Virus record (IMG/VR): IMGVR_UViG_3300001680_000191
Span: 1-64,000 of that record
DNA length: 64,000 bases
From: an uncultured virus (IMG/VR IMGVR_UViG_3300001680_000191)
Taxonomy: Duplodnaviria; Heunggongvirae; Uroviricota; Caudoviricetes
Strand: one strand, 5' to 3'
This document shows, one piece after another, positions 16,008-63,989 of the stretch. Made by a program: the position numbers and the translations under genes. How positions within the stretch are numbered: the stretch's first letter is position 1; every line of letters begins with the position of its first letter. The notes beneath the pieces were generated by a model. It saw nothing but the letters and a program-made list of their open reading frames with translations, made no database searches and was not told the DNA's origin.

Positions 16008-16787
16008 ATGGGAATCAACATGGAGCTTATGCGCCGCAAGCTCGCAAATTTGCGCGGTGACGGAAGAGGTTCTGACGGAACTTCACACTGGTTCAAGCCA
16101 GACGAGGGAGATACGGATATCCGTATTGTACCAACAGCGGATGGAGATCCGTTGAAGGAAATGTTCTTCCACTATAACGTGGGAGATCATAGGGGAGGTG
16201 TTGTGTGTCCGAAGCGAAACTACGGAGAACGCTGCCCCATCTGCGATTTTGCCTCACAGTTGTGGCGTGAAGGAACAGACACAAACGATGAGGAAACCAA
16301 GAAGCTAGCAAAGTCACTCTTTGTGCGCACTCGGTACTTCTCACCAGTCGTTGTACGAGGTCGAGAGGATGAGGGAGCGAAGATTTACGGCTACGGAAAG
16401 CAGGCGTATGAACTTTTGCTCGGGTATATTCTTGATCCTGAATACGGTGATGTCACTGATGTGCAAGAGGGCACCGATATCACCCTAACCTATACGAAGC
16501 CCAATAAGCCGGGCGCGTACCCACAAACAAGCCTGAAGATGCGTAGAAACACTTCGCCACTGCTTAAGGATAATGAAGCCGTCCCCGCCCTCCTAGATGG
16601 TATTCCAGAGTTTGATTCTCTTTTTGAGCGCCTTACTCCAGAGCAGGTAGATGTGATTCTCGATGAGCAGTTAGCCGGCGAAAAAACCGCTGAAGCGCGC
16701 TCGTCTGAGACAACGTCATACAACCACCAAAATAAGGGTGGAAAGAATGACGTGGACCGTGCATTTGATGAACTAATGTCAGGTTAA
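16008..16787 (+). CDS. Single-stranded DNA-binding protein (gp32-like)
   Basis: FHY...CPK...CPIC Zn ligands, YGDVTD..EGTDI, acidic tail DVDRAFDELM. Confidence 0.85.
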   Translation: MGINMELMRRKLANLRGDGRGSDGTSHWFKPDEGDTDIRIVPTADGDPLKEMFFHYNVGDHRGGVVCPKRNYGERCPICDFASQLWREGTDTNDEETKKLAKSLFVRTRYFSPVVVRGREDEGAKIYGYGKQAYELLLGYILDPEYGDVTDVQEGTDITLTYTKPNKPGAYPQTSLKMRRNTSPLLKDNEAVPALLDGIPEFDSLFERLTPEQVDVILDEQLAGEKTAEARSSETTSYNHQNKGGKNDVDRAFDELMSG

Positions 16788-19297: not shown

Positions 19298-20440
19298 ATG
19301 GCTAAAGCTAAAGCAAAAGCTGGTCGTGTAGCAATACAAGACCTAATGAAAATGGTTAACAAGAAAGCCGGCAGGAATGTCGCACACGATCTGACGGGAG
19401 AAAATCCCACGTCAGTAAAGGAATGGATCCCCACCGGCTCCCGCTGGCTGGACTCAATCATCAGCAAGGGCCACCGTGCCGGCGTTCCAGTAGGAAAGGT
19501 GACGGAGATTGCAGGACTTGAATCCACAGGCAAATCTTACATGGCCGCGCAAATAGCCGCAAACGCTCAGAAAACGGGCAAGCTTATCGTCTACTTCGAT
19601 TCTGAGTCAGCCATCGACCCACGCTTCTTGGAGCAGGCAGGATGTGACCTAGAGCGACTAATGTACATCCAGGCTTCCTCTGTGGAGTTTGTATTGGAGA
19701 CTGTAGAAGAACTGCTGGGAGCAGCCGAAGATCAACTACTGTTCATCTGGGATTCACTCGCACTTACACCTTCTGTATCTGATGTTGAGGGAGACTTTAA
19801 TCCCCAATCATCGATGGCAGTGAAGGCGCGCATTTTGGCCAAGGGAATGTCCAAGCTGATTATTCCGATTGCCGACAAACAGGCTACGTTCCTGGTCCTC
19901 AATCAGTTGAAGACTAACATTCCCAGCGGACCAAACGCTCGCATCATTGCTATGACGACTCCGTATATGACACCGGGAGGAAAGGCAATGCATTATTCCT
20001 ATTCTCTCCGCATCTGGTTGACTGGGCGCAAGGCAAAGGCTTCCTTTATTGAAGACGAGAAGGGATTCCGTATTGGATCCGAGGTTAAGGTGAAACTGGA
20101 GAAGTCTCGCTTTGGCACACAAGGGCGCTCATGTGCTTTCCGCATTCTGTGGGGGAACGAAGTGGGCATCCGCGATGAAGAGTCGTGGTTCGATGCGATC
20201 AAGGGCTCTTCATGTCTCACCAGTGCCGGCGCATGGTACACCATTAAGACAGCCGACGGCTATGAAAAGAAGTTCCAGCCTTCTAAGTGGACCGAGTTGG
20301 TAAATGAAGACGCAGAGTTTAGAGAGCATGTTACTGCACTAATGGATGAGGAGATAATTCAGAAGTTTGATAAGCGCCAGGGTGACGCAAAAGCTTTTTA
20401 TGAAGATCCTGCAGATCTCACAGTTCCAGTAAAGGCATAG
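19298..20440 (+). CDS. recA: RecA/UvsX recombinase
   Basis: IPTGSRWLD, Walker A GLESTGKS, FIWDS, LNQLK, TPGGKAMHYS. Confidence 0.95.
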   Translation: MAKAKAKAGRVAIQDLMKMVNKKAGRNVAHDLTGENPTSVKEWIPTGSRWLDSIISKGHRAGVPVGKVTEIAGLESTGKSYMAAQIAANAQKTGKLIVYFDSESAIDPRFLEQAGCDLERLMYIQASSVEFVLETVEELLGAAEDQLLFIWDSLALTPSVSDVEGDFNPQSSMAVKARILAKGMSKLIIPIADKQATFLVLNQLKTNIPSGPNARIIAMTTPYMTPGGKAMHYSYSLRIWLTGRKAKASFIEDEKGFRIGSEVKVKLEKSRFGTQGRSCAFRILWGNEVGIRDEESWFDAIKGSSCLTSAGAWYTIKTADGYEKKFQPSKWTELVNEDAEFREHVTALMDEEIIQKFDKRQGDAKAFYEDPADLTVPVKA

Positions 20441-51611: not shown

Positions 51612-51634
51612 CATAAAGGAAACTATTTATAAAC

Positions 51635-52805: not shown

Positions 52806-53071
52806 TGTTTTGGACTGAGGGTTTTTTTAATTCAGGACCGTTTGCCAGCGCGAGCATCGACAGCCAAAATTTTGCGGACGGACTATACTTCGCTCATCTG
52901 TTTCAATCTTCTTTGGAACAACGCACCCTGATTGAAGAAGCTCACTTGACCGCCACGATGAATAATGATTTAGAATTAGCACTTAAAAAGAAAACTGAAT
53001 TAGATTATTTAGATGGTGTATTCAGACTAACAATGGAAATACACAAATCTGACGGTGGATTAGATTCTTGA
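52796..53071 (+). CDS. Hypothetical protein
   Basis: Coupled small ORF; start uncertain. Confidence 0.5.
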   Translation: MWIMFWTEGFFNSGPFASASIDSQNFADGLYFAHLFQSSLEQRTLIEEAHLTATMNNDLELALKKKTELDYLDGVFRLTMEIHKSDGGLDS

Positions 53072-53331
53072 CCAAGCTATACATTTATTGTTTATTTGAA
53101 CAAGACGATATTTTTCACGGAGTTTATTCTTCGTTAAAAAGTGCCCACCGCGATGCGCTAAAGATGGCCAACAAAGGACCAACCGGGGTGTATATTAAAT
53201 ATTCTGGCGAATATTTAGCACCCACGCTGCCGATCTTGAAAAAGATTTTTAACGGAGAGATAGACATAAAAGTTGAATACATTTCTTCAGCCGCCAGGGC
53301 CACCATTATTAAAACAAAACTAAAAGAGTAA
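53068..53331 (+). CDS. Hypothetical protein
   Basis: KLYIY...GVYSSLKSA motif. Confidence 0.55.
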   Translation: MTKLYIYCLFEQDDIFHGVYSSLKSAHRDALKMANKGPTGVYIKYSGEYLAPTLPILKKIFNGEIDIKVEYISSAARATIIKTKLKE

Positions 53332-53332
53332 G

Positions 53333-53590
53333 ATGGAAATTTATGTAATATACGGAATCACAGATTGTCCCGCATGTCTCCGCGCATGCGCGGATTTAAT
53401 GGATTGTGAGAAAGAATATGTTTTTGTAGAAACTGATTTTTCTAAAACATACCGGACTTCCCTTAAAAAAGAATTTGAGTGGGAGAGTTTTCCGATGATA
53501 GTGAAAGCGACCGAGGACACAGAGGAGTTCATCGGTGGCTATGATGATTTGTGTCATATTTTAGAAAAGGAATCAAGCGCCCCCACGTGA
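53333..53590 (+). CDS. Glutaredoxin
   Basis: CPAC, SFPMI, FIGGYDDL. Confidence 0.88.
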   Translation: MEIYVIYGITDCPACLRACADLMDCEKEYVFVETDFSKTYRTSLKKEFEWESFPMIVKATEDTEEFIGGYDDLCHILEKESSAPT

Positions 53591-53645
53591 AGCCTATAAA
53601 TTGAACATCGGCTCTTCACAAAATAATCATTAGAATAGTTACTAT

Positions 53646-53894
53646 GTGGAATTTAAACGCGGAAATTTGATACGGTGGGTGGTGGATCATAATGCATATG
53701 AAGCCTCCGACGACGTTTTAAGGGGTATCAGCCCTAATTATAGACATGGGATTGTCATGGAAGTATCGAATAAAGATCCAACTGCCGTGATGGTTTTTTG
53801 TTATGATTGCAAAAAGAAAAGGGAGGGCAATTGGATGATACTCGATGCGGCACACGATAGACTTGAAATTTTGAGTGGTGAATCCGATGGCTAA
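53646..53894 (+). CDS. Divergent SH3/KOW-like family member
   Basis: FKRGNLIRW...HGIVMEV...LEILS. Confidence 0.6.
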   Translation: MEFKRGNLIRWVVDHNAYEASDDVLRGISPNYRHGIVMEVSNKDPTAVMVFCYDCKKKREGNWMILDAAHDRLEILSGESDG

Positions 53895-54189
53895 TTTATT
53901 TTTCAAGAAAGAAAAGTCCCCCAAACAAGAGGCAATAAACGCACTTCTGTTAATGATCTCCAATTATTATGACGGGCGCTATGAAGTGTTGGCGACATCA
54001 GATGATGGAGGGGCTATGTTGGAAGTACAGATAGAGGTGCCTGATGTTTCTGGACACTTATCTACCCAAGCACCAACATTTCCTTTTTTTGATATTTGGC
54101 CTATTTGGATGGGCTGGCGTGTGGTGATAGCTAAAGTACCGCCGGGGTACATCGATGCAATAACCTTGGCAGCAGAGTCAGATTATTAA
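53887..54189 (+). CDS. Hypothetical protein
   Basis: Overlaps the upstream stop. Confidence 0.55.
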   Translation: MANLFFKKEKSPKQEAINALLLMISNYYDGRYEVLATSDDGGAMLEVQIEVPDVSGHLSTQAPTFPFFDIWPIWMGWRVVIAKVPPGYIDAITLAAESDY

Positions 54190-54239
54190 CATCCCTCTGA
54201 CAACATATGCTTGACTTTTTTCTTGAGTTGGGTTATATT
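54186..54239 (+). promoter_or_regulatory. Promoter with tandem upstream boxes
   Basis: TTAACA(54186), CTGACA(54197), -35 TTGACT(54211)-N17-TATATT. Confidence 0.65.
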
Positions 54240-54259
54240 TATAACATAGAGAGAAGATT

Positions 54260-54898
54260 ATGTCAATGGAACAAAAAATTACTGAAACTCTTTCAAGGTC
54301 GGTCTGCGGTGGATGGGATCGTGGCTTTTTAGAATCTATCCTTGACCAACTTGCCAAGGGTCGCAACCTATCAATCAAACAAAAACAAAGCATAGGCAAA
54401 GTATTGGCGCGTAACGGCGATGACGCGCAGGGAGTTCACGACAACTGGCAAACTGAATATATTAAGAAATATAAAAAAGATGGAATCGTGCTGGCCACAT
54501 ATCATTCCCGGCAGCCTTATTATAAGCCAATGGCCGCAGACATTTTAGCAGACAAAGTGCCGGAGTATAAAAAGTTTCTCCGCATGTATAATAATAAGTA
54601 TTCCCGCAAGGTTCTTGCAGCCCACACACAGGCGCCACGTTATGCGGTAAGCACCCATATACAGGGGAGAACCAATCTGAATGCCTACAAAGACATTGAG
54701 ATAGATAGTGTAGCGTGGACTACTCAATCGGCCGTCGTGGAAAAGTTCAAAAAGCATGGCGGGTTCATAATGGAGATTCGCCCTGAAATATATTCTCATG
54801 CCAAGGGTTCTAAACGATACAAGATTTTACCCATAGGCGCTACAATACCTCTTATTATTGAGGAACGACACCTGAAACTACATCGTAAGACCAAATAG
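54260..54898 (+). CDS. Hypothetical phage protein
   Basis: WDRGFLESILDQL...LSIKQ motif. Confidence 0.7.
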   Translation: MSMEQKITETLSRSVCGGWDRGFLESILDQLAKGRNLSIKQKQSIGKVLARNGDDAQGVHDNWQTEYIKKYKKDGIVLATYHSRQPYYKPMAADILADKVPEYKKFLRMYNNKYSRKVLAAHTQAPRYAVSTHIQGRTNLNAYKDIEIDSVAWTTQSAVVEKFKKHGGFIMEIRPEIYSHAKGSKRYKILPIGATIPLIIEERHLKLHRKTK

Positions 54899-54913
54899 GA
54901 AGCTATTTATGGT

Positions 54914-55147
54914 GTGTATCCTCCACGCTTTCAATCCGGTACTTTCGTTCGATGTGTCTATGACTTCATGGATTTTTATACCTATATTTATGACGATGTT
55001 GACGCGACAGATTACACTCACTACGGTCTTGTGATCCGCGCCGACCCCGAGTTTTTAGATTTTATGGATGAATATGTTTATGAGGTTTTGTGTGTGGACG
55101 GGATTAAGAGGCATTTTATGGAGTCAGAAATCGTAGAAGTTATGTAA
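54914..55147 (+). CDS. Divergent SH3/KOW-like family member
   Basis: FQSGTFVR...YGLVI...YEVL...FMESEIVEV. Confidence 0.5.
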   Translation: MYPPRFQSGTFVRCVYDFMDFYTYIYDDVDATDYTHYGLVIRADPEFLDFMDEYVYEVLCVDGIKRHFMESEIVEVM

Positions 55148-55155
55148 GTTTGCAC

Positions 55156-55184
55156 TTGACAGGGCGTGCGTAATGCGATATACT
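55156..55184 (+). promoter_or_regulatory. sigma70 promoter for tRNA-Leu
   Basis: TTGACA-N17-TATACT. Confidence 0.75.
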
Positions 55185-55196
55185 TTATATAGGAAG

Positions 55197-55282
55197 GGCT
55201 GATTGGTGGAACGGTATACACAGGAGACTTAAAATCTCCCGCCCGTTCGGGCTTGCGGGTTCGAGTCCCGCATCAGCTACCA
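55197..55282 (+). tRNA. tRNA-Leu (anticodon TAA)
   Basis: Acceptor stem GGCTGAT/ATCAGCT, anticodon arm GGAGA-CTTAAAA-TCTCC, long variable arm, GGTTCGAG T-loop, encoded CCA. Confidence 0.93.
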
Positions 55283-55295
55283 TTTAGGAGGTAAA

Positions 55296-55487
55296 ATGAA
55301 AAGCATTTTCAAATATGGGATAATCGTTATTTTAATCTATTTTGGGGTCAACTGGGTTGCAGATAATCCGAAGTCAATGCACCAGTTTCGCAAGATAATG
55401 AATGGCTGGGTAGCTACCGGCGCAGAAAAGGCTTCGGAAGTGTTTGACGGGATAAAAACGAGTGCCTCACAATCTCTTGACAAATAA
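55296..55487 (+). CDS. Small membrane protein
   Basis: AGGAGG RBS; N-terminal TM. Confidence 0.7.
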   Translation: MKSIFKYGIIVILIYFGVNWVADNPKSMHQFRKIMNGWVATGAEKASEVFDGIKTSASQSLDK

Positions 55488-55520
55488 AATCTTGCTTTTT
55501 TCATAGCAGGGTGCTATATT
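55466..55520 (+). promoter_or_regulatory. Promoter with tandem upstream boxes
   Basis: CTCACA(55466), TTGACA(55477), -35 TTGCTT(55492)-N17-TATATT with TG extension. Confidence 0.65.
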
Positions 55521-55542
55521 ATATACATCCAAGGAGAGCAAA

Positions 55543-55701
55543 ATGGATTTTAGTATTGGTGATATTGTGAAACATATTGAAGCTGGCAAGATTGGCACGG
55601 TAAGGCTGATCGACGGTGTGGCTGTCTGGGTATACTGGGGGTGCGGGTCGCTCGATCACACCAACTATATGCAGCTTGAAATACTTGACACGGCTGTATG
55701 A
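55543..55701 (+). CDS. GDLV-family small protein (52 aa, not in the ORF track)
   Basis: MDFSIGDIVKHIEAGKIGTV...WVYW...LEILDTAV; AAGGAG RBS. Confidence 0.7.
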   Translation: MDFSIGDIVKHIEAGKIGTVRLIDGVAVWVYWGCGSLDHTNYMQLEILDTAV

Positions 55702-55919
55702 TAAGAGTAGGCGATCTGGTAAAATACATTCCGAGTCCCTCTGCCACATTTAAGTGGGAGAGGTACACGGATGCGTATAAAGCCCTTCCTGGCGTGATTC
55801 TACGCGAAGTGAAAGCCAAGGGCACCACTACGCGCCGATTTGAGATACGCTGGCACGACGGCCAGCTATCAGAAGAATGGATAAGTTTTCTGGAACCCTT
55901 TGACAACTCTTTGACTTGA
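55698..55919 (+). CDS. GDLV-family small protein
   Basis: MIRVGDLVKY...PGVILRE...IRWHDG...LEPF. Confidence 0.75.
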   Translation: MIRVGDLVKYIPSPSATFKWERYTDAYKALPGVILREVKAKGTTTRRFEIRWHDGQLSEEWISFLEPFDNSLT

Positions 55920-55944
55920 CTTGGGGCGGTTTCGGTGTTATATT
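55900..55944 (+). promoter_or_regulatory. Promoter with tandem upstream boxes
   Basis: TTGACA(55900), TTGAC(55911), -35 TTGACT(55916)-N17-TATATT with TG extension. Confidence 0.75.
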
Positions 55945-55966
55945 ATAAGAGTAAGGAGAGGAAGAA

Positions 55967-56161
55967 ATGAGCCCTGAAGAAATGAAAGCGCGCCCCGTGC
56001 GATTTATCGTCGCTGGTGATATGGTACACGAAAATATAGGAACCTTTGGCGAATGGATCGGGCTCGTCATTGATGTTGATCAGCGTACAGGGACAGCCAA
56101 GATTCTCAGGCGAGGGAAAATCATCGAAAGAAGTGATCACGGTCGCTGGAATGTTGTTTAG
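55967..56161 (+). CDS. Divergent GDLV-family protein
   Basis: VAGDMVHE...IGLVIDV. Confidence 0.6.
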   Translation: MSPEEMKARPVRFIVAGDMVHENIGTFGEWIGLVIDVDQRTGTAKILRRGKIIERSDHGRWNVV

Positions 56162-56165
56162 ACTC

Positions 56166-56220
56166 TTGACAATCACTTGACAGGATTGCCCTTGCTACCT
56201 GTGTCCCACTATGTTATATT
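56166..56220 (+). promoter_or_regulatory. Promoter with tandem upstream boxes
   Basis: TTGACA(56166), TTGACA(56177), -35 TTGCTA(56192)-N17-TATATT with TG extension. Confidence 0.75.
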
Positions 56221-56242
56221 ATAGGTATAGAAAGGAGAAAAC

Positions 56243-56416
56243 ATGATCGAAGTTGGAAGTATTGTAGAGAGCATCGGCTTTGTGCAAGGGCACAACAAGT
56301 CAAACCACGGGCTTGTCATTAGCCTGATGGCAGACGGCAAGATCGCTCGCGTGTTCTGGATGGCTACGCAGCAGAGCGGCTTTTGCTCAGTTAAAGATTT
56401 GAAGGTGATAACATGA
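56243..56416 (+). CDS. Divergent GDLV-family protein (57 aa, not in the ORF track)
   Basis: MIEVGSIVES...HGLVIS...RVFW...DLKVIT; AAGGAG RBS. Confidence 0.7.
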   Translation: MIEVGSIVESIGFVQGHNKSNHGLVISLMADGKIARVFWMATQQSGFCSVKDLKVIT

Positions 56417-56760
56417 AAGTTTGGGTTATGCAAGGAAGCTATGAAGGCGAGTTGTTTAGCAGCGTACACCTGACTCAGAAAGGTTGCGCCATGGCGTGTA
56501 TTGCTGATATAATGGAGTTCTTGGATATTGACGACGAAGCATCGATGCTCGATGCGATACAAGACAGACAGGTATACGAGGCTCCCGTTGGAGAAAAAGA
56601 CGATATTGCGAAGCCTATTGAGTGGGACCAAGAGAAACTGAAAGAAATGACGAGCGAGCAGCTTTGGAAGATTTTTGCTGAGTGGTCCGAGATCAGTTGG
56701 GATCGAATGGCAGATCGTAGCTATAATCTCGACGCAAATCCTGTGGAGATTCAAGCATGA
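56413..56760 (+). CDS. Hypothetical protein, paralog of the next gene
   Basis: MKVWVMQ...VHLTQKGC. Confidence 0.7.
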   Translation: MKVWVMQGSYEGELFSSVHLTQKGCAMACIADIMEFLDIDDEASMLDAIQDRQVYEAPVGEKDDIAKPIEWDQEKLKEMTSEQLWKIFAEWSEISWDRMADRSYNLDANPVEIQA

Positions 56761-57062
56761 TGAACATTTGGGTAGTACGACAGACATGCACAATGGAACA
56801 CGACACCTATCTCTCCACGCATATAACGGAGAAAGGCGCGCTGATCACCGCCATTAAAATAGTGCGTGAGGATCTGACAGACGGATTCGATGAGGATGAG
56901 CTTGAAGATATGCGATCAGGCATGCCCCACCATCCCGAAGAAGATTTGATGCAGTACGACAGCAAACAACTACGGGGCATTGTTAACGACTGGTGGGAGT
57001 ATGGCTTTGATATGAATGAACACGTACAATACCAGATACATCAAACACAGGTGGTAGGATGA
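56757..57062 (+). CDS. Hypothetical protein, paralog of the previous gene
   Basis: MNIWVVR...THITEKGA. Confidence 0.7.
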   Translation: MMNIWVVRQTCTMEHDTYLSTHITEKGALITAIKIVREDLTDGFDEDELEDMRSGMPHHPEEDLMQYDSKQLRGIVNDWWEYGFDMNEHVQYQIHQTQVVG

Positions 57063-57295
57063 CAGCACTTAAAGTTTTTATTTTGGTGGGAACGATAGAT
57101 TCTCACGATGGTCAGTTTGCGACAGTCGAACTTAATCTAAATCCAGCAACGAATGGTGGCCCCGCGATGGCGGTGCTGCCCGTGTCTGCGTTTCCATGCG
57201 AGATCAAGGAAGGGAAAGTGTTTTATGTAGTTAAACTTTCCGAGCTGGAAGATGCTGTTATCATTTGCCAAAAGGAGCCTGATGAAAATAGGTGA
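57059..57295 (+). CDS. Hypothetical protein ending in the junction repeat
   Basis: Its stop lies inside ATGAAAATAGGTGA (C-terminus DENR). Confidence 0.65.
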   Translation: MTALKVFILVGTIDSHDGQFATVELNLNPATNGGPAMAVLPVSAFPCEIKEGKVFYVVKLSELEDAVIICQKEPDENR

Positions 57296-57476
57296 TTTGG
57301 TAAGGTTTGAAAGTGTCTTGAACGATGATATGGATCGTTATCAAGAAGCACATGGCTTGGTGGTGAAGATGTCTAAGACTGGACACGATACAGAGTCAGC
57401 ACAGGTGTTGTTTAGCAACGGAGAAACTGGATGGCTTGATACTCAAAGATTGGTGGTGATAAATGAAAGTAGGTGA
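57282..57476 (+). CDS. MKVGDLV-family protein
   Basis: MKIGDLVRF...LVVINESR. Confidence 0.8.
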   Translation: MKIGDLVRFESVLNDDMDRYQEAHGLVVKMSKTGHDTESAQVLFSNGETGWLDTQRLVVINESR

Positions 57477-57684
57477 CTTAGTTAAACTTCCGTCCTCGCG
57501 TGGAGCATCGTTCCGCGCTGGGCTTATTGTTGATTTTGTTGAAAAGAAATGCTGGCGCACAGAAGAACTTGGCATCAAGGTAGACTGGCGCAAGATCGAT
57601 CCAGAGCCTCACGCGGTTGTGTTGATTAACGGTAACCGCCGGACCATTCCGTTGACAGACTTGGAACCTATTGATGAAAGCTAG
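57463..57684 (+). CDS. MKVGDLV-family protein
   Basis: MKVGDLVKLP...LEPIDES. Confidence 0.8.
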   Translation: MKVGDLVKLPSSRGASFRAGLIVDFVEKKCWRTEELGIKVDWRKIDPEPHAVVLINGNRRTIPLTDLEPIDES

Positions 57685-57880
57685 CGGCGCCCCCAGCATC
57701 GGTGATCTTGTTGTCGCACTCTACGATGTGGAGCGCGGCATTTCTTGCGCTGGATTGGTGATGGAGACTAAGGGAATCGAATGTAATGTTCGGTGGTTAT
57801 CCGCAAGTTATCCTATCGGATGGTGGCAGCGTTCAGCCCTAAAAGTTATCAGCCCAAGCGGGAAGACCAAAAAAGTTTAA
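57674..57880 (+). CDS. GDLV-family protein with a short N-terminal extension
   Basis: MKASGAPSIGDLVV...LKVIS. Confidence 0.75.
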   Translation: MKASGAPSIGDLVVALYDVERGISCAGLVMETKGIECNVRWLSASYPIGWWQRSALKVISPSGKTKKV

Positions 57881-57885
57881 CGCAC

Positions 57886-57940
57886 TTAACAATCACTTGA
57901 CAACTTAGAGGTTGACTAACACCCGTTTGGGTGCTATATT
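57886..57940 (+). promoter_or_regulatory. Promoter with tandem upstream boxes
   Basis: TTAACA(57886), TTGACA(57897), -35 TTGACT(57912)-N17-TATATT with TG extension. Confidence 0.8.
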
Positions 57941-57964
57941 ATAGGTATAGAAAGGAAGAAATAT

Positions 57965-58174
57965 ATGAAAGTCGGTGACCTTGTGATGTTTGAAAGTGAC
58001 GTTCCCAAATCCCAGCGGTTCTGGACTGGCGAATATGTCAGAACAGGCATTGTTGTTGCTGAGTTATCCGGCGATCATATCGAAGCACCCGCTGTTTCAG
58101 TATTGTGGGCATCAGGCGAACTTACTGAAAGATGTCCTCCCCGGATACTGGAGGTGATCAGTGAAAGTCGGTGA
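57965..58174 (+). CDS. MKVGDLV-family protein
   Basis: MKVGDLVMF...LEVISESR. Confidence 0.8.
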   Translation: MKVGDLVMFESDVPKSQRFWTGEYVRTGIVVAELSGDHIEAPAVSVLWASGELTERCPPRILEVISESR

Positions 58175-58331
58175 TTTGGTAAGAGACGTTGAAGGCAAAT
58201 ACATCGGCATAGTTTCGCACATTGATCCTGAAGAAATCGGTGATGATGATGCGGTTATGGTTGTGTGGCTCGATGGTGATGCTTCTTGGCATACAGCAGA
58301 GTTTTTGGAGAGATTAAATGAAAATAGGTGA
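58161..58331 (+). CDS. MKVGDLV-family protein (56 aa, not in the ORF track)
   Basis: MKVGDLVRDVEGKYIGIVSHIDPEEIGD...LERLNENR. Confidence 0.8.
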   Translation: MKVGDLVRDVEGKYIGIVSHIDPEEIGDDDAVMVVWLDGDASWHTAEFLERLNENR

Positions 58332-58494
58332 TTTGGTAGAATCCCCCCATCATATGATTCGGGGCATTGTCACGGAAGTAGGCGATGGTGACGATAACTA
58401 TAATAACGGCCCAGCCGTGCGCGTCAAATGGCTTGACGGCGACGATTCGATAGAGTGGGCAGAGTATTTGAGGGTGATCAGTGAAGGTCGGTGA
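58318..58494 (+). CDS. MKVGDLV-family protein (58 aa, not in the ORF track)
   Basis: MKIGDLVESPHHMIRGIVTEV...VKWLDG...LRVISEGR. Confidence 0.8.
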   Translation: MKIGDLVESPHHMIRGIVTEVGDGDDNYNNGPAVRVKWLDGDDSIEWAEYLRVISEGR

Positions 58495-58651
58495 TCTGGT
58501 GAGAAGCCTTAAATCTGAGGGTGGCATGTTGGGTATTATAGTTGGATGGCATCGCCACAACCGTGAGGCGCGCCCAATAGTCCGATGGAATGACGGCAGA
58601 ATCAGTTGGGTGATGCCACATTTAGTCAAGGTAATGTGTCCAGTATTATGA
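58481..58651 (+). CDS. MKVGDLV-family protein (56 aa, not in the ORF track)
   Basis: MKVGDLVRSLKSEGGMLGIIVGW...PIVRWNDGR. Confidence 0.8.
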   Translation: MKVGDLVRSLKSEGGMLGIIVGWHRHNREARPIVRWNDGRISWVMPHLVKVMCPVL

Positions 58652-58845
58652 AAGTAGGCGATCTGGTAAAGGTGGGACCACCATCGCGCCCTTTTATCAC
58701 CCATCCATTTTTCGTGAGCATCGTGTTGGAAGTCAACAAGAGCGAAAACCATCCGAATGGTTTGGGGTTAGTTAAAGTGTTGGAAGCCGGCCAAGAAGCG
58801 TGGTATCCCATTGGATGCATCGAGTTGATAAATGAAAGTCGGTGA
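58648..58845 (+). CDS. MKVGDLV-family protein
   Basis: MKVGDLVKVG...IELINESR. Confidence 0.8.
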   Translation: MKVGDLVKVGPPSRPFITHPFFVSIVLEVNKSENHPNGLGLVKVLEAGQEAWYPIGCIELINESR

Positions 58846-59017
58846 TCTGGTTAAACTAAAGTGGCGAGGAAATGGTCACCCCAAGATTGGTGTGATTGTT
58901 GGTAGTTTTCAAGGTGACCTGGACTGTGAAGAATATAAAGTTTTATGGGATTGCCCGGAGTGGTCGATGGGCATGTGGAAAGAGCGTGAGTTGGTGGTGA
59001 TCAGTGAAAATAGGTGA
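58832..59017 (+). CDS. MKVGDLV-family protein
   Basis: MKVGDLVKLKWRGNGHPKIG...LVVISENR. Confidence 0.8.
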   Translation: MKVGDLVKLKWRGNGHPKIGVIVGSFQGDLDCEEYKVLWDCPEWSMGMWKERELVVISENR

Positions 59018-59192
59018 TCTGGTCGAGATTGAAAAGTGGTGCAAGAACAAGTTTAGGAAAGCTATTGTTGTTCGGGTCGAAGAATGGGATCGCGAAGGCG
59101 CATGGATTAAGTATCTCGATGGCGGCCATGGCACAAGTGACAGCGGCTATGCCATGAAACGAAACTTGAAGGTGATCAGTGAAAGTAGGTGA
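59004..59192 (+). CDS. MKVGDLV-family protein
   Basis: MKIGDLVEIE...LKVISESR. Confidence 0.8.
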   Translation: MKIGDLVEIEKWCKNKFRKAIVVRVEEWDREGAWIKYLDGGHGTSDSGYAMKRNLKVISESR

Positions 59193-59358
59193 TTTGATTA
59201 AACATAGGCATGCCGAGTGGCACACAGGCATAGTCACAAAGGTTAGCCGTGACGGACCACCGGGCTTGGTGTATGTAGAGGCTTTGTGGAGTGGCGACTG
59301 GCTTAATGAACGGAGCATAGAACAACAATATCTTGAGGTGATCAGTGAAGGTCGGTGA
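59179..59358 (+). CDS. MKVGDLV-family protein (59 aa, not in the ORF track)
   Basis: MKVGDLIKHRHAEWHTGIVTKV...LEVISEGR. Confidence 0.8.
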   Translation: MKVGDLIKHRHAEWHTGIVTKVSRDGPPGLVYVEALWSGDWLNERSIEQQYLEVISEGR

Positions 59359-59506
59359 TCTGGTTCGCGTAAATGCTCCCGTGGTGTATATCGGTATGGT
59401 TATGGTTACTAATGTGAAAGGTGGCGCTCTTGTGCGCTCGCTTGATGGCAACTATGAGTATTGGATATATGACTGGAGCGGGGAGGTTATCAGTGAAAGT
59501 CGGTGA
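59345..59506 (+). CDS. MKVGDLV-family protein (53 aa, not in the ORF track)
   Basis: MKVGDLVRVNAPVVYIGMV...GEVISESR. Confidence 0.8.
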   Translation: MKVGDLVRVNAPVVYIGMVMVTNVKGGALVRSLDGNYEYWIYDWSGEVISESR

Positions 59507-59699
59507 TCTCATATCGTTCAAGCCAAAATCGTTCGGTGATGATGACTGGTCTAACCCCGGCATTGTACTCGACAGCTATGAGCATGATGATCGGCAAACT
59601 GGAGGCTGGAAAGACTTGATATGGATTGTATGGATCGATGGTTATAAATGTATGGTCAACCAAAGAAACGATGATGTGGTTTACTTGACAGGTTCTTGA
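59493..59699 (+). CDS. MKVGDLV-family protein
   Basis: MKVGDLISFK...PGIVLD...IVWIDG. Confidence 0.8.
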   Translation: MKVGDLISFKPKSFGDDDWSNPGIVLDSYEHDDRQTGGWKDLIWIVWIDGYKCMVNQRNDDVVYLTGS

Positions 59700-59729
59700 C
59701 TTGACATTGGGGCAAATGGGTGTTATATT
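59685..59729 (+). promoter_or_regulatory. Promoter with tandem upstream boxes
   Basis: TTGACA(59685), TTGAC(59696), -35 TTGACA(59701)-N17-TATATT with TG extension. Confidence 0.8.
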
Positions 59730-59735
59730 ATAGGT

Positions 59736-59873
59736 ATGAAGAAGAAAAAGACCAACACCCCGAAGCGCCGCAACTGGATCGCAGTCGCCGCACATTTTCG
59801 GCTCGCCGGAGCGATGAAGGATCGCAAGAAGGCAGCGAACAAAAAGGCATGCCGAGGAAAGGTGCGAGTATGA
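59736..59873 (+). CDS. 45-aa highly basic peptide, probably leaderless
   Basis: MKKKKTNTPKRRNWIAVAAHFRLAGAMKDRKKAANKKACRGKVRV; ATG 6 nt after the -10; ATGA overlap with the next gene. Confidence 0.65.
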   Translation: MKKKKTNTPKRRNWIAVAAHFRLAGAMKDRKKAANKKACRGKVRV

Positions 59874-60040
59874 AAATCGGTGATCTGGTGCGTATGCAAG
59901 CGAATGGAACGATATGGTTAGTTATGTGTGTTGTCGGTGACGATGCACTGTTACATAATATGAAGACCAACTATCGAATGTGGGCGACTTGGAACCTCAC
60001 ACACGATAGACTCAACTATGAAGTGATGAGCGCAGCATGA
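59870..60040 (+). CDS. MKVGDLV-family protein
   Basis: MKIGDLVRMQ...YEVMSAA. Confidence 0.78.
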   Translation: MKIGDLVRMQANGTIWLVMCVVGDDALLHNMKTNYRMWATWNLTHDRLNYEVMSAA

Positions 60041-60213
60041 AAGTCGGTGATTTGGTAAAGAGTCGTTACGCAAGGTTTGAACTCGCTGGAGTGATGGGGG
60101 TTATCGTCAAAAATACACCCGAGTATTCCACAACCCAATATCAGGTTTTGGTGGGTGGTCGCATACGATCCTTTGCGGCGAGGCATTTGGAGGTTATCAA
60201 TGAAAGTCGGTGA
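60037..60213 (+). CDS. MKVGDLV-family protein (58 aa, not in the ORF track)
   Basis: MKVGDLVKSRY...MGVIVK...LEVINESR. Confidence 0.8.
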   Translation: MKVGDLVKSRYARFELAGVMGVIVKNTPEYSTTQYQVLVGGRIRSFAARHLEVINESR

Positions 60214-60379
60214 TTTGGTGAGAAGCCTTCAGAGTTATAACTCTGAAGGCGGCATGTTAGGTATTATAGTCGGCTGGAACCGCAGCCCTGCAAATCTCCC
60301 TCATATCTGCCCAATAGTACGATGGAATGACGGTAGAACCAGTTGGGTTATGCAACATTTAGTTAAGGTGGTGGTATGA
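60200..60379 (+). CDS. MKVGDLV-family protein
   Basis: MKVGDLVRSLQSYNSEGGMLGIIVGW; close paralog of the 58481 gene. Confidence 0.8.
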   Translation: MKVGDLVRSLQSYNSEGGMLGIIVGWNRSPANLPHICPIVRWNDGRTSWVMQHLVKVVV

Positions 60380-60660
60380 AAGTCGGTGATTTGGTAACAT
60401 TGTCAACATATTCGTTATGTTCAGAACCGATGTGGACATGGAAGAACAAGATTTGGGATGGTAAAAAGTCCCTTGTGGGGCTGGTTGTGTGTGTGAAAAA
60501 TAACCCACGTATCAGGCCATGGACATCTAAGAATGAAAGCACATTTTATTATATTAACTGGATGCAGAAAGATGGTCCTGCGAGCCGATTCGGAACAACA
60601 ATCTATCACGGCAGCGCGTCTGGATATTTCCTGCGTAAAGATTTGAAGTTTGTGAAGTGA
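60376..60660 (+). CDS. MKVGDLV-family protein (longer member)
   Basis: MKVGDLVTLS...VGLVVCV...INW...LKFVK. Confidence 0.8.
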   Translation: MKVGDLVTLSTYSLCSEPMWTWKNKIWDGKKSLVGLVVCVKNNPRIRPWTSKNESTFYYINWMQKDGPASRFGTTIYHGSASGYFLRKDLKFVK

Positions 60661-60677
60661 ACAAAAAGGAGATAAAG

Positions 60678-61022
60678 ATGCAAGTAAATGAGTTTTTTAA
60701 TACAGTTGGTTCCAACAGGAACCGACAGGTTGTGTGTGCTGATGGGTTCACCATGAGTGTGCAAGCGTTCGATGGTGGGTACTGCACACCGCGCATCAAC
60801 GACGCAGACAAGTATGAAGAAGTTGAGGTAGGCTACCCGAGCGAGCGCGAGGAACTACTGATGAACTGGGCAGAAGAACCCGACAAGCCGACACAAACGG
60901 TTTACGGATACGTGCCGGTTCAAGTGGTGACGAATGTGCTGGCAAAGCACGGCGGCATTGTTGACGGCGAGATCCCCAAGGGTGTTGCCCCAATCCCAGC
61001 AAACTTTATGGTTGACGAATAG
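60678..61022 (+). CDS. Hypothetical phage protein
   Basis: AGGAG RBS before ATG 60678; CADGFTMSVQA...YCTPR...EVGYPS. Confidence 0.7.
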   Translation: MQVNEFFNTVGSNRNRQVVCADGFTMSVQAFDGGYCTPRINDADKYEEVEVGYPSEREELLMNWAEEPDKPTQTVYGYVPVQVVTNVLAKHGGIVDGEIPKGVAPIPANFMVDE

Positions 61023-61066
61023 TTGACAACTTAGGCGTTGACAGTGGCGCTATGCTTTGCTATATT
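61012..61066 (+). promoter_or_regulatory. Promoter with tandem upstream boxes
   Basis: TTGACG(61012), TTGACA(61023), -35 TTGACA(61038)-N17-TATATT with TG extension. Confidence 0.8.
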
Positions 61067-61089
61067 ATAGGTATAGAAAGGAAAAAACT

Positions 61090-61299
61090 ATGACCGAGCA
61101 ACGACACCCAATCCACGCCGTAGGATCTTTGGTGCGGCACAAGAACCTTCCTGACAACCCTCTTGCGCTTGTTATAGACCATGCGCCTTGTTCAGATGGT
61201 AGCGGGATCATCGTCAGAGTGCTAAAGCCATCAAGGGGCAATCCAAGCGGTGAGTTTGTCACAGTATCTATCAGATGGGAACTTGTTTCTTCGTCCTGA
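61090..61299 (+). CDS. Divergent GDLV-family protein
   Basis: HAVGSLVRHK...ALVID...VRVL...WELVS. Confidence 0.65.
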   Translation: MTEQRHPIHAVGSLVRHKNLPDNPLALVIDHAPCSDGSGIIVRVLKPSRGNPSGEFVTVSIRWELVSSS

Positions 61300-61349
61300 C
61301 ATTCACTTGACAAGAAATGGCTTGCACTAATAGCCATCCCGGTTATATT
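61296..61349 (+). promoter_or_regulatory. Promoter with tandem upstream boxes
   Basis: CTGACA(61296), TTGACA(61307), -35 TTGCAC(61322)-N16-TATATT. Confidence 0.65.
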
Positions 61350-61368
61350 ATAAGAGTAAGGAGAAAAT

Positions 61369-61770
61369 ATGGGTTATCGTTCCGAAGTTGTTTTGTATGT
61401 GGGTCCAGAAGTGATGCCACAGTTTATGGTCGCGATGGCCAAGTCCCAAGCCGCCCGAGAGTTGTGCTTTGGCGATGCCGATCAGATGGTCAAAGATTAT
61501 GGTGACGTTAAAGGTTCGTTCCTATTTAAGTGGGGATGGCTCAAATGGTACGATAGCTTCCCTTGTGTGAACGCCATCGAGGACTTTATGGATTGGTGCG
61601 ACGGCGAGAAAGTTCCCACAGGCGAGAAAGACGAGGAAGGGAAAGATAAGACAGACCACGCCACCGAGTTTTTCAAGTTTATTCGCATTGGCGCAGAAAT
61701 GGATGACAATGAGCAGCGAGGCGATGCGTTTTGGGGTGACATTTATATCAACCGGAGCATTGAGTTTTAA
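61369..61770 (+). CDS. Hypothetical phage protein
   Basis: MGYRSEV...LKWYDSF...FIRIG; AAGGAG RBS. Confidence 0.75.
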   Translation: MGYRSEVVLYVGPEVMPQFMVAMAKSQAARELCFGDADQMVKDYGDVKGSFLFKWGWLKWYDSFPCVNAIEDFMDWCDGEKVPTGEKDEEGKDKTDHATEFFKFIRIGAEMDDNEQRGDAFWGDIYINRSIEF

Positions 61771-61781
61771 GTTTGAGGAAA

Positions 61782-61857
61782 GGGACCATAGCTCAACTGG
61801 CAGAGCAAAAGGCTTTTAACCTTTAGGTTCTGGGTTCGATTCCCAGTGGTCCCACCA
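61782..61857 (+). tRNA. tRNA-Lys (anticodon TTT)
   Basis: GGGACCA/TGGTCCC acceptor stem, AAAGG-CTTTTAA-CCTTT anticodon arm, GGTTCGA, CCA. Confidence 0.95.
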
Positions 61858-61864
61858 TTATCAC

Positions 61865-61941
61865 AGGCTCTTAGCTCAGTTGGTCAGAGCATTCCGCTCA
61901 TAACGGATCGGTCGTCGGTTCAAGTCCGACAGAGCCTACCA
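61865..61941 (+). tRNA. tRNA with CAT anticodon (probably Ile2, alternatively elongator Met)
   Basis: AGGCTCT/AGAGCCT acceptor stem, CTCATAA loop, GGTTCAA, CCA; the paired 1-72 and lack of GGG/CCC exclude the initiator tRNA. Confidence 0.9.
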
Positions 61942-61961
61942 CTTTTATAATAGGAGAGAAA

Positions 61962-62165
61962 ATGATTTACACAGTCATTTATGAAGAAGAAAACACAGGA
62001 AATATGGGGACTTTTACTTTCGCGGCTCAGAGGCATGACAAAAACTATGCATGGGCTGAGTTTGTTGAAAAGTATGCAGAGAAAGGGCAAGAACCGATTG
62101 CTATAATGCCCGGTCAAAGCCTCGTATATTTTATACCTGACATTTCGTTTGCAAACGTGGCTTGA
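61962..62165 (+). CDS. Hypothetical protein
   Basis: AGGAG RBS. Confidence 0.65.
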   Translation: MIYTVIYEEENTGNMGTFTFAAQRHDKNYAWAEFVEKYAEKGQEPIAIMPGQSLVYFIPDISFANVA

Positions 62166-62190
62166 CTTCGACAAGCGCCTGAGTTATAAT
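62162..62190 (+). promoter_or_regulatory. sigma70 promoter for tRNA-Arg
   Basis: TTGACT-N17-TATAAT. Confidence 0.75.
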
Positions 62191-62198
62191 ATAGTTAT

Positions 62199-62275
62199 GC
62201 TTCGGTAGCTCAGCTGGATAGAGCATCGGCCTTCTAAGCCGAGGGTCATAGGTTCAAGTCCTATCCGAAGTGCCA
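62199..62275 (+). tRNA. tRNA-Arg (anticodon TCT)
   Basis: GCTTCGG/CCGAAGT acceptor stem, TCGGC-CTTCTAA-GCCGA anticodon arm, GGTTCAA, CCA. Confidence 0.95.
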
Positions 62276-62300
62276 CTCACAAACAACAAAAGGAAACAAA

Positions 62301-62525
62301 ATGTCGTATCACGATGGCTATATTAAACCAGGCTCCACAGGTATATCCGTGGTCAATCCTCTCCATGAGGTGCAGCTTAAACTCGATAAGATCACACAGT
62401 TGGTCAGTGAGTCGTCTACCGCTGAACATGAAGATGCCGGCGTTATTAGTATCGAGCACCTTAGAATGATACTGACACTTCAAAACATTCTCGACGGCAC
62501 CGACGACGAGAAAGATGTAAAGTAA
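62301..62525 (+). CDS. Hypothetical protein
   Basis: AAGGA RBS. Confidence 0.6.
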   Translation: MSYHDGYIKPGSTGISVVNPLHEVQLKLDKITQLVSESSTAEHEDAGVISIEHLRMILTLQNILDGTDDEKDVK

Positions 62526-62537
62526 ATGTTAGTCCCC

Positions 62538-62566
62538 TTGACGCGCCCCCACATAGGGGTTATATT
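62538..62566 (+). promoter_or_regulatory. sigma70-like promoter
   Basis: TTGACG-N17-TATATT. Confidence 0.6.
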
Positions 62567-62649
62567 TATAGAGTAGGGCAAGATCCCGCGATTTTTTCTC
62601 GCCATTTTTTCTTACCAAAAATCTCTTTTCCCAACGCACAGAAAGCACA

Positions 62650-62934
62650 ATGAAAATGACACTCGTAGTAGACACGGACGACCCGAAAGGGATTGATCAC
62701 GCATGGGAAATGATTGCCATTCTTCAAAAGAAGGCTGGTCGGAACCCAACTGCGATTCGGTATACTAAAGAGTTTGGAAAGATTGAATACATTAAGTCCC
62801 TCCGCAAGTACGTGCGCGAACAGGCAGATGCACTTAAAGATGCCGACGACGATACCGTGGGTGATATTAAGGACATGCAGAGCCTTCGCAATACCAAGCA
62901 GTTTGCTGACCGTATTTTCAATGGTGAAAAATGA
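62650..62934 (+). CDS. Hypothetical protein with a possible ribosomal L7/L12 CTD-like motif
   Basis: KIEYIKSLR...SLRNTKQFAD versus L7/L12 KIAVIKAVR...GLKEAKDLVE. Confidence 0.45.
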   Translation: MKMTLVVDTDDPKGIDHAWEMIAILQKKAGRNPTAIRYTKEFGKIEYIKSLRKYVREQADALKDADDDTVGDIKDMQSLRNTKQFADRIFNGEK

Positions 62935-63110
62935 AAGTTGGTGATCTGGTGACATTTGAGTTTAACCCTGATAACATCGCGTCGTTGGGTATCGTTACTT
63001 GTATCGATCCCGAAGAAATCGGTGATGCAAATGAAGTCGAAGTTTTATGGAACGATGGCGATTCACGGAACCACTCAACAATCCATCTGGAGCTATTAAG
63101 TGAAGGTTAA
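62931..63110 (+). CDS. MKVGDLV-family protein (59 aa, not in the ORF track)
   Basis: MKVGDLVTFEF...GIVTCIDPEEIGD...LELLSEG. Confidence 0.8.
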   Translation: MKVGDLVTFEFNPDNIASLGIVTCIDPEEIGDANEVEVLWNDGDSRNHSTIHLELLSEG

Positions 63111-63288
63111 AGTTGGCGATCTGGTGAGAATGAAGGACACTATGTATGATAGTGATCTTGTCGGCATCGTTGTTGACAGGGACCATCATCCTAACTCTAC
63201 CCAAATAGGTATAAAATGGTTTGGAGGTTCAGGCAAAGTTGACTGGGAGCCCGAGCCATGGTTGGAGGTTGTCAGTGAAAGTCGGTGA
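63100..63288 (+). CDS. MKVGDLV-family protein
   Basis: MKVKVGDLVRM...LEVVSESR. Confidence 0.8.
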   Translation: MKVKVGDLVRMKDTMYDSDLVGIVVDRDHHPNSTQIGIKWFGGSGKVDWEPEPWLEVVSESR

Positions 63289-63424
63289 TCTGGTGTTTGA
63301 TAGATACCATAAAAAATACAGCATCGTTGTGGATGTGTGGGGCAGCAAGAAAACGGGGAGGTTCGTTAAACTTAACCAGGGATACAAAGTATCTGCCGAA
63401 TATATGAGGGTTGTTAGTTCTTAA
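63275..63424 (+). CDS. MKVGDLV-family protein
   Basis: MKVGDLVFDRY...MRVVSS. Confidence 0.78.
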   Translation: MKVGDLVFDRYHKKYSIVVDVWGSKKTGRFVKLNQGYKVSAEYMRVVSS

Positions 63425-63474
63425 CAATCTCTTGACGGGAAAAACTTGCGTTAACCGCTGCGCGGTGTTATAAT
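63421..63474 (+). promoter_or_regulatory. Promoter with tandem upstream boxes
   Basis: TTAACA(63421), TTGACG(63432), -35 TTGCGT(63446)-N17-TATAAT with TG extension. Confidence 0.7.
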
Positions 63475-63480
63475 ATATAT

Positions 63481-63666
63481 ATGAAAGTTGGTGATCTGGT
63501 AAAACTCAAACATCAAGGTAATGGCCACCCACGTATCGGTATCGTTAAAAGCGTGTCGGTGCGTTCTCTTGAAGAAAGGGTATGCACGTGTATGTGGGAT
63601 AAGCCATTGTGGGATTACGTTCAGTATAATGAAGGCGAGTTGGAGGTTGTTAGTGAAAGTAGGTGA
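63481..63666 (+). CDS. MKVGDLV-family protein, probably leaderless
   Basis: MKVGDLVKLKHQGNGHPRIG...LEVVSESR; ATG 6 nt after the -10 with no SD. Confidence 0.8.
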   Translation: MKVGDLVKLKHQGNGHPRIGIVKSVSVRSLEERVCTCMWDKPLWDYVQYNEGELEVVSESR

Positions 63667-63820
63667 TCTGGTGAGATACAAAGGCATTTTAGGCATTGTT
63701 ACTGCGCCTTGCATAAAGCGATGGGCTAAATCTGGTGATGTGTGGGTGCTGTGGAACAACAGGAGCAAGCCCATCGTGGAGTGCAGCGGCTTTATGGAGT
63801 TGGTAAATGCAAGTCGGTGA
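63653..63820 (+). CDS. MKVGDLV-family protein
   Basis: MKVGDLVRYKGILGIV...MELVNASR. Confidence 0.8.
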   Translation: MKVGDLVRYKGILGIVTAPCIKRWAKSGDVWVLWNNRSKPIVECSGFMELVNASR

Positions 63821-63989
63821 CTTAGTTAAACATTTTCTGACCGAGCAGATCGGCGTCATAGTTTTTATCTCGCAACATAACGGGCTTCCGATCCGTGTGC
63901 TGTGGACAACGCAGGGCGATTCCCTGTTCGGTCCCGGCAACAAAGAATGGTGTGGAGAGAATCAGTTGGATCTCTTGACAACTGCTTGA
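63807..63989 (+). CDS. MKVGDLV-family protein
   Basis: MQVGDLVKH...IGVIV...RVLW...LDLL. Confidence 0.8.
   Translation: MQVGDLVKHFLTEQIGVIVFISQHNGLPIRVLWTTQGDSLFGPGNKEWCGENQLDLLTTA

Follow-up and report, generated by a model that had tools for sequence, protein, structure and literature searches.

The system that appears, by analogy, to come closest to the locus described here is PeSL-mediated modular shuffling in T4-type phages, where intergenic cassettes of about 100 bp, each combining a promoter with a terminator, flank variable open reading frames (ORFs); recombination between PeSLs is reported to account for the insertions and deletions (indels) that distinguish closely related phages, and to give rise to mini-circles (PMC2839356; Comeau et al., 2014, PMC4122927). 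The window analysed here is a stretch of 64,000 nucleotides of DNA at the beginning of a viral contig of 73,630 bp (IMG/VR record IMGVR_UViG_3300001680_000191, hereafter G000; guanine-cytosine content 46%), in which small genes in tandem meet at a repeated junction of about 32 nt. The reading favoured here, to which a probability of about 0.7 is assigned, is that this junction is the boundary shared by a large family of tiny early-region genes, and that homology-driven recombination at the boundary shuffles whole genes. Since some 20–32 nt are nearly identical at every boundary, recombination between any two of them would remove, duplicate, insert or replace whole genes while leaving expression unbroken.

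Like the PeSLs in their published description, the short conserved sequences found here border early genes that are small and variable, in a T4-like myovirus; between close relatives whole ORFs have been inserted, deleted or replaced, with the exchange inside the repeat, and the repeat supplies its own expression signals; the phage also has PeSL-like promoter cassettes. The repeated motif flanks about 35 small ORFs in what would be the hyperplastic region of a T4-like phage, and both indels and replacements with exchange inside the motif were found. The PeSL, as described, is a sigma70-like promoter with a stem-loop terminator, whereas the junction is coding and holds a Shine-Dalgarno (SD) sequence, a start and a stop. 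It measures about 32 nt, includes no intergenic DNA, consists of the coding termini of one family and bears translational instead of transcriptional signals; moreover, mini-circles are known for PeSLs, whereas the material here consists of contigs only. By this analogy, the new element with respect to PeSLs would be a shuffling boundary built into coding sequence and carrying translational signals.

Two other kinds of gene arrangement invite comparison. Tandem multigene families subject to unequal crossing-over and gene conversion also consist of tandem paralogues with conserved ends, among which deletion, duplication (here in the relatives L083 and L029) and replacement occur; unlike in such families, only the ends of about 32 nt are alike here, the gene bodies sharing about 25% pairwise nucleotide identity, so that exchanges would fall at the boundaries and carry along whole bodies that are unrelated to one another. 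Overlapping genes that are translationally coupled likewise have an SD inside the upstream gene and a start near the upstream stop, and GTG is enriched at coupled junctions, but the overlap found here is fixed at 14 nt, is reused hundreds of times and takes its stop from the Gly-Asp codons of the downstream gene. The long-standing debate on phage mosaicism opposes exchange at conserved “linker” sequences to random exchange followed by selective filtering. The array offers a natural test case for that debate, with hundreds of unrelated bodies and one boundary, which is protein terminus, ribosome-binding site, start and stop together, and inside which the events between close relatives map.

Anatomy of the junction

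The genes concerned form a family of about 35 paralogues of 49–94 amino acids (aa), all on the + strand, between 55.5 and 72.2 kb of the contig. The N-terminus M/V-K-V/I-G-D-L-V is found in every member, many C-termini read L-E-V-I-S-E-S-R, and the members align as a single family with the pattern MKVGDLV / GIVV / VxVxW / DG / LxVI. The initial annotation had reported nine close copies of a repeat of about 30 bp. With a 31-nt consensus and at most three mismatches, seven copies were recovered (58150, 58470, 58993, 59334, 59482, 60189 and 63264) against 0.00 expected from shuffles, and the other two, at 59168 and 63642, carry four mismatches each; a shorter core around the start codon, TGAARRTNGGYGAYYT, gave 22 matches against 0.24 expected. 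Across 28 junctions, high pairwise identity is confined to about -12 to +20 of the start codon.

The dual coding proposed in the same annotation reads exactly as claimed. In the upstream frame the junction is ATC AGT GAA AGT CGG TGA (I-S-E-S-R-stop) and in the downstream frame GTG AAA GTC GGT GAT CTG GT (M-K-V-G-D-L-V), the stop of gene n being the TGA inside the Gly-Asp codons (GGTGAT) of gene n+1. The junction is the overlap of the conserved C- and N-termini of the family: the MKVGD of gene n+1 fixes the final four amino acids of gene n (S/N-E-S/N/G-R), which form an unstructured tail, while the codons of the last strand, TTG GAG GTG ATC, double as an extended SD, with the next start codon 6 nt further on. 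The stretch GGAGGTGATC is presumably complementary to the 3' end of the host 16S rRNA. The number of fourteen 14-nt overlaps given in the annotation was reproduced in the window, 13 of them between family genes and one leading from a non-family gene (57059–57295) into the gene at 57282, and 18 were counted on the whole contig; 4-nt ATGA overlaps (58648, 60037 and 60376, among others) and the recurrence of GGTGATC as a direct repeat 17 nt apart are likewise present.

The 5' end of the cassette, NTGAAAGTCGGTGA, as read from the sequence, provides stops in both alternative frames (NTGA and the TGA at +11), and therefore any upstream ORF in either non-cassette frame is terminated within 14 nt and would be coupled to the next gene. 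The layout is that of a coupled pair, with the downstream start within or beside the upstream stop and the SD inside the upstream gene, and we infer that genes joined by the junction are translationally coupled. Promoter hexamers and a stable stem-loop are absent from the junction. Two non-family genes, 57059–57295 and 69664–69981 of the contig, have no stop of their own and end in ..ENR and ..NESR at the embedded TGA of the next family gene. A variant junction was also seen at 63100–63110, where the upstream gene ends in TAA (63108–63110), the next gene begins GTG AAG GTT AAA GTT GGC GAT (MKVKVGD) and the overlap is 11 nt.

Gene-sized differences between close relatives

The expectation that breakpoints among relatives would map to the junction was borne out: indels of one gene and of several genes, the swap of one cassette and the duplication of another are all bounded by junctions. 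The 102.5-kb sister record (G001, locus L005) is 100% identical to G000 over 60376–69535 and 99.68% identical over 48477–60219, and lacks 60220–60375, which amounts to exactly one gene (60200–60379); the two blocks overlap by the 20-nt ATGAAAGTCGGTGATTTGGT, the start of that gene and of the next. An independent contig of 4,018 bp, from another sample (run X5), has the same joint, skipping 176 nt with 20 letters fitting both sides, and contigs of runs X1, X3 and X4 end at 60219 and resume at 60376. In these three runs the contig depth of the gene segment is 9.3, 4.6 and 7.8, respectively, compared with 25–34, 12–14 and 17–20 in the flanks, which is to be taken as a hint only, and in X5 the segment has no depth at all.

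A second relative, L067, 82–99% identical to G000, lacks the family gene F69968, with the crossover in ATGAAAGTCGGTGAT and a jump in flank identity from 91.5% to 99%; it also lacks F70633, with the crossover in GGTGMTCAGTG, and replaces 70301–70480 by a different family gene (33% aa identity), the conserved flanks ending at both junctions. In L083 a single cassette has been duplicated in the order A-B-A', the A copies being 98.9% identical and both copy ends lying in junctions; L029 holds an adjacent gene pair that is 85% identical, and in L075, L035, L065 and L009 the orthologues stand in scrambled order. When contig pairs with flanks of at least 88% identity were scanned (19 raw rows, 13 unique rows), 11 distinct indels emerged: six with 18–35 nt of junction identity at both ends, two at family-type starts with 6 nt (L072/L073) or no microhomology (a 206-bp event in L073/L042), one with a single end at a family-type start, and two elsewhere.

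The remaining differences between G000 and L005 all fall in three patches inside family genes, 57738–57754 and the two listed in Table 1. Across four samples these patches account for nearly all the nucleotide variation in a 10-kb stretch that does not otherwise vary, and they segregate independently. The idea that they were copied from paralogues was discarded after a search for donors came back empty; they are allelic variants, one of which is shared with L009.

As every sequence compared is an assembly, the gene-sized differences could in principle be artefacts of assemblers jumping between 20–30-nt repeats in mixed phage populations. Logan contigs do break exactly at junctions (58151–58160, 59001/59011, 60219/60376), and many short-sided joints of 20–37 nt are repeat-induced. 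On this account the “goes back” joints (sides of 31–37 nt) were rejected as evidence of circles, and most joints as evidence of rearrangement, the sides of 20–37 nt being the repeat itself. Nevertheless, the deletion form was obtained independently in L005 and in the X5 contig with long sides, the depth of the deleted segment points the same way, if only as a hint, and neither cassette swaps nor jumps of identity between relatives at 80–99% can be produced by the collapse of a repeat, which makes an assembly origin very unlikely.

Distribution of homology ends

The junction is widespread. A degenerate 22-nt pattern retrieved 89 stretches of IMG/VR contigs, from 6.7 to 293 kb, and a hidden Markov model built from the family members of the contig gave 999 matches in 88 sources. 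The -14 overlap with a preceding family gene occurs at 273 of 687 unique family starts and the -4 overlap at 37, other spacings being rare. Homology blocks between different contigs (at least 78% identity over at least 120 bp) have 574 unique internal ends, and 223 of these (39%) lie within -15 to +25 of a family start, a window that covers 2.9% of positions; left ends cluster at -15 to +4 and right ends at +15 to +29. Expressed per boundary, there are 0.29 ends for each family start and 0.045 for each non-family ORF start. The linkage between coupled neighbours also falls off as gene A diverges: the neighbour is orthologous in 49/53 cases where gene A shares 95–100% aa identity, in 9/15 at 85–95% and in only 1/28 at 70–85%, with 13/27 at 70–85% in a noisy control of small non-family genes.

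A different reading of these distributions is that the junction is kept for expression only (termini, SD, stop and initiation), that recombination is random and illegitimate, and that selection retains the events which happen to fall at boundaries, the repeat not being a preferred crossover site. Both LxVI and MKVGDLV are structural strands, some events show little or no microhomology, as in the two cases above, two indels lie elsewhere, and non-family neighbours are likewise poorly conserved, albeit in the noisy control; all of this would agree with such a reading. It is harder to reconcile with the 18–35 nt of junction identity at both ends of 6/11 indels, and with homology ends that occur about six times as often for each family start as for each of the other ORF starts. 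Together with the codon preferences described below, these counts make the expression-only explanation unlikely.

Shuffling at the boundary by homology is nonetheless opposed by several considerations. Whole-gene indels that survive selection must fall near gene boundaries in any case, and 2/11 indels are unrelated to the family and lie in tRNA or promoter areas. Recent duplicates within a locus are rare (4/1,914 pairs at 80% identity or more). A length of 15–30 nt is short for efficient RecA-type exchange. Counts and p-values are inflated, as related sequences were compared at loci selected for the presence of the junction, and the ORF calls behind the non-family controls are crude. The relatives and both allelic forms are all metagenome assemblies or Logan contigs, in which repeat-induced misassembly is possible. 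Finally, part of the synonymous bias, such as AAA at codon 2 and codons ending in A/T, could reflect selection on translation initiation. As a separate observation, the two indels of about 220 bp outside family junctions, at 13423–13637 and 17300–17523 of L026 (compared with the near-identical contigs L044 and L078), lie beside tRNA or promoter-like sequence, and one of them has an 8-nt repeat.

Constraint at the nucleotide level

The codon counts cover 538 unique canonical starts from this contig and its IMG/VR relatives, none of which lies closer than 60 nt to the edge of a locus. These starts comprise 361 overlap-type junctions and 103 free starts, at which a stop codon in the relevant frame excludes an upstream gene using the embedded TGA; 74 starts of an intermediate class were set aside. 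At the overlap-type junctions the synonymous sites of L-E-V-I lean to GGAGGTGATC, the direction of the anti-SD complement: GAG accounts for 249/256 codons (background 0.42), ATC for 162/219 (0.34), GTG for 156/259 (0.27) and TTG for 74/163 (0.22). An extended SD would be expected to cause a lean of this kind, and the upstream bias agrees equally with the expression-only explanation. The LxVI strand is itself a feature of the protein, because it is kept in members without a downstream overlap (for example LKLVY, LNVIE and LKVISPSGKTKKV), and the junction is in large part an SD plus the strands that one protein family conserves at its N- and C-termini.

GGT is invariant where the embedded stop is in use. 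At the free starts, where no upstream gene uses that stop, the preference nevertheless persists: GGT is used in 81/103 cases (background 0.30), GTC in 52/88 (0.19), AAA in 77/89 (0.50), GTA in 49/95 (0.17) and TTG in 42/98 (0.22). Thus, conservation exceeds what amino-acid coding and the overlap need, in agreement with the statement of the initial annotation that synonymous positions are constrained, and the strong preference for GGT and GTC speaks against a junction kept for expression only. The accompanying statement that Gly-Asp is nearly always GGT GAT held for glycine but not for aspartate at the free starts, GAT being found in 75/103 cases against a background of 0.66, which is not significant. 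GTG serves as start at 152/361 coupled junctions and at 14/103 free starts, an excess that fits reinitiation.

Conservation of the start region might also reflect an operator for a RegA-like or small-RNA translational regulator acting on all family genes, a role compatible with recombination. In favour of this, the same ATGAAAGTCGGTGATYTGGTA stands at coupled and free starts with biased synonymous sites; against it, no conserved RNA structure was found in eight junctions; a search for RegA (PF01818) gave no match and, being without a positive control, is uninformative. An operator is regarded as improbable, somewhat more so than conservation for expression only.

Mechanism of exchange

The initial annotation had held that crossovers between junctions delete, duplicate or insert whole genes with ribosome-binding site, start and stop retained, and had likened this behaviour to an integron. 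The recombination is largely supported by the junction-bounded events; the integron-like part is not. The likeness lies in a one-directional array of cassettes with a repeated boundary sequence and in gain and loss of whole genes, with promoter-like cassettes here only ahead of runs. The attC-like imperfect inverted repeat or hairpin of integrons is absent: the junction is a direct repeat, and the RNA folds of eight junctions gave z-scores of -2.0 to +1.5 with no inverted repeat, hairpin or common structure. The crossover point is not fixed, its position differing between events, within and beside the junction. The proposed search of the remaining genome for a recombinase or reverse transcriptase revealed neither a tyrosine integrase (PF00589), such as an IntI-type recombinase, nor a reverse transcriptase among the 61 contig ORFs of at least 95 aa or in the sister record, the two records being 38% and 54% complete, respectively, according to CheckV.

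A dedicated site-specific system, integron-like or nuclease-guided, could be imagined to move the cassettes by recognising the junction, perhaps by means of the two GATC sites in it. The nucleotide conservation beyond coding needs would be in keeping with it, as would the two sites themselves and the enrichment of GATC on the contig (395 sites, where base composition predicts 280), and both genome records are incomplete. Set against the missing integrase and reverse transcriptase, the lack of inverted repeats or consistent structure and the variable crossovers, it is the least probable of the explanations considered. The same three findings, namely variable crossovers, no integrase or reverse transcriptase found and no hairpin, argue for homology-driven exchange, and the sequences fit homology- or microhomology-driven exchange at the boundary of about 32 nt. 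The agent may be the phage RecA/UvsX–gp32 machinery, or else replication slippage or annealing. Genes for a RecA/UvsX-like protein, a gp32-like protein and a 5'–3' exonuclease are all present on the contig, and the RecA/UvsX-like protein, which the initial annotation had also named, is a plausible candidate for the catalyst.

It is a more tentative proposal, and on balance a doubtful one, that the junction is a standardised, coding-embedded connector, kept at the nucleotide level, even where a start has no overlap to serve, because every cassette can thereby terminate, couple and recombine with any other; it would be a translational counterpart of the PeSL. If true, anti-host genes could pass one at a time from phage to phage during co-infection, perhaps in the form of excised circles of a cassette.

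Small-gene family and predicted fold

An AlphaFold model of the gene at 58318–58494, built with a 24-member alignment, is a five-stranded barrel (predicted local distance difference test score 91.1), with MKVGDLV as the first strand, residues 52–55 (LRVI) as the last and unstructured final residues. The best Foldseek matches were the Spt5 KOW domain, YorP, PetP and the UvrD C-terminal/Tudor domain, with template modelling scores of about 0.7 and E-values above 0.01. The model of this one member gives an SH3/KOW-like small beta-barrel as the predicted fold of the family. All Pfam matches of family members stayed below the cut-off, the single PHROGs match was phrog_1690 (unknown function; 1.8e-5, one member), and 112/112 database homologues were unnamed or “hypothetical”. 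A protein atlas returned unnamed viral clusters only, the nearest named ones being SH3-like families with scores below 0.9. In a literature search “MKVGDLV” appeared in no paper, and a search for small paralogous proteins arrayed in tandem in phages gave nothing relevant. The array therefore marks out an uncharacterised and highly diversified family of small, putatively SH3/KOW-like proteins, abundant in related IMG/VR viral contigs, whose members are candidate host take-over or counter-defence proteins.

Genomic context and array features

The contig covers part of the genome of a T4-like myovirus that has not been cultured. Profile matches to PHROGs and Pfam identify T4-like genes for the tail sheath, the tail tube and a baseplate protein, and a 5'–3' exonuclease, a DnaB helicase and a class II ribonucleotide reductase are also encoded. 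No cultured close relative was among the matches, the DnaE-type polymerase being about 27–31% identical to the best of them, and blastn of the array region against 50,697 phage records gave tRNA matches only. A hydrothermal-vent origin is indicated by contigs of four metagenome runs of one study, which contain the region at 0.83–1.00 of sampled words; the habitat rests on those four runs, and runs X6–X20, with a small share of words, were left out. Table 1 lists the features.

Table 1. Features of the junction array and candidate recombination genes, in contig coordinates.
Feature	Position	Strand	Details
gp32-like single-strand DNA-binding protein	16008..16787	+	PF08804 2.9e-15
RecA/UvsX-like recombinase	19298..20440	+	phrog_97 2.6e-60; PF00154 7.9e-35
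Two divergent family members	55543..55919	+	SIGDIV and RVGDLV starts; ATGA overlap between them
Allelic variant patch	57276..57356	+	begins 6 nt before the 57282 start codon; run X5 only
Three family genes	57282..57880	+	57282, 57463, 57671
Promoter-like cassette TTGAC-N17-TATATTATAGGTATAGAAAGGA	57912..57964	+	before first gene of operon
Ten family genes, predicted coupled	57965..59699	+	57965, 58161, 58318, 58481, 58648, 58832, 59004, 59179, 59345, 59493; promoter-like cassette 57912 ahead
Allelic variant patch	58049..58156	+	21 differences from L005; right end inside junction; runs X4, X5
Junction with 14-nt overlap	58149..58181	+	start GTG 58161; upstream stop TGA 58172-58174
Further 14-nt-overlap starts	57282, 57463, 58318, 58481, 58832, 59004, 59179, 59345, 59493, 60200, 63275, 63653, 63807		
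ATGA junction (4-nt overlap)	58645..58668	+	cassette 5' end read in the other alternative frame; likewise 60037, 60376
Four family genes, predicted coupled	59870..60660	+	59870, 60037, 60200, 60376
Polymorphic cassette	60200..60379	+	identical 20-nt ATGAAAGTCGGTGATTTGGT on both sides (60200, 60376)
Three family genes, predicted coupled	62931..63424	+	62931, 63100, 63275
Three family genes, predicted coupled	63481..63989	+	63481, 63653, 63807

The replication and chaperone genes include a set that is unusual for a phage with T4-like tail genes (13929–15116, 28667–32122, 40852–42447, 32126–32731 and 38468–39109), made up of a DnaE-type Pol III alpha subunit, a GroEL-type chaperonin, two ClpP-like proteases and a short ORF of 395 aa resembling a fragment of a family-A polymerase. 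Two Dam-family N6-adenine methyltransferases (PF02086, PF05869) are encoded at 18435–19259 and 34220–34690, and 161 of the GATC sites of the contig are located in 55–73 kb. Four tRNA genes stand among the small-gene arrays: Leu-TAA (55197–55282), Lys-TTT (61782–61857), Met-CAT (61865–61941) and Arg-TCT (62199–62275). A spike of depth at 62016–62349 in the mapped contigs stems from tRNA of other organisms.

Promoter-like cassettes of the form TTGAC-N17-TATATTATAGGTATAGAAAGGA occur in about 13 copies between 55.9 and 72.6 kb (15 regular-expression rows, including two overlapping pairs). In the window they lie at 55916, 57912, 59701, 61038 and 62162, with a looser copy near 63432, and further along the contig at 64897, 65848, 65952, 67561, 69413, 71002 and 72567. 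They are placed only ahead of the first gene of each run, with no intergenic DNA between coupled genes. A highly conserved form reads TTGAC-N17-TATATTATAGGTATAGAAAGGAAAAA, and four looser matches, to a -35 box and a generic -10 box only, are found upstream of 50 kb.

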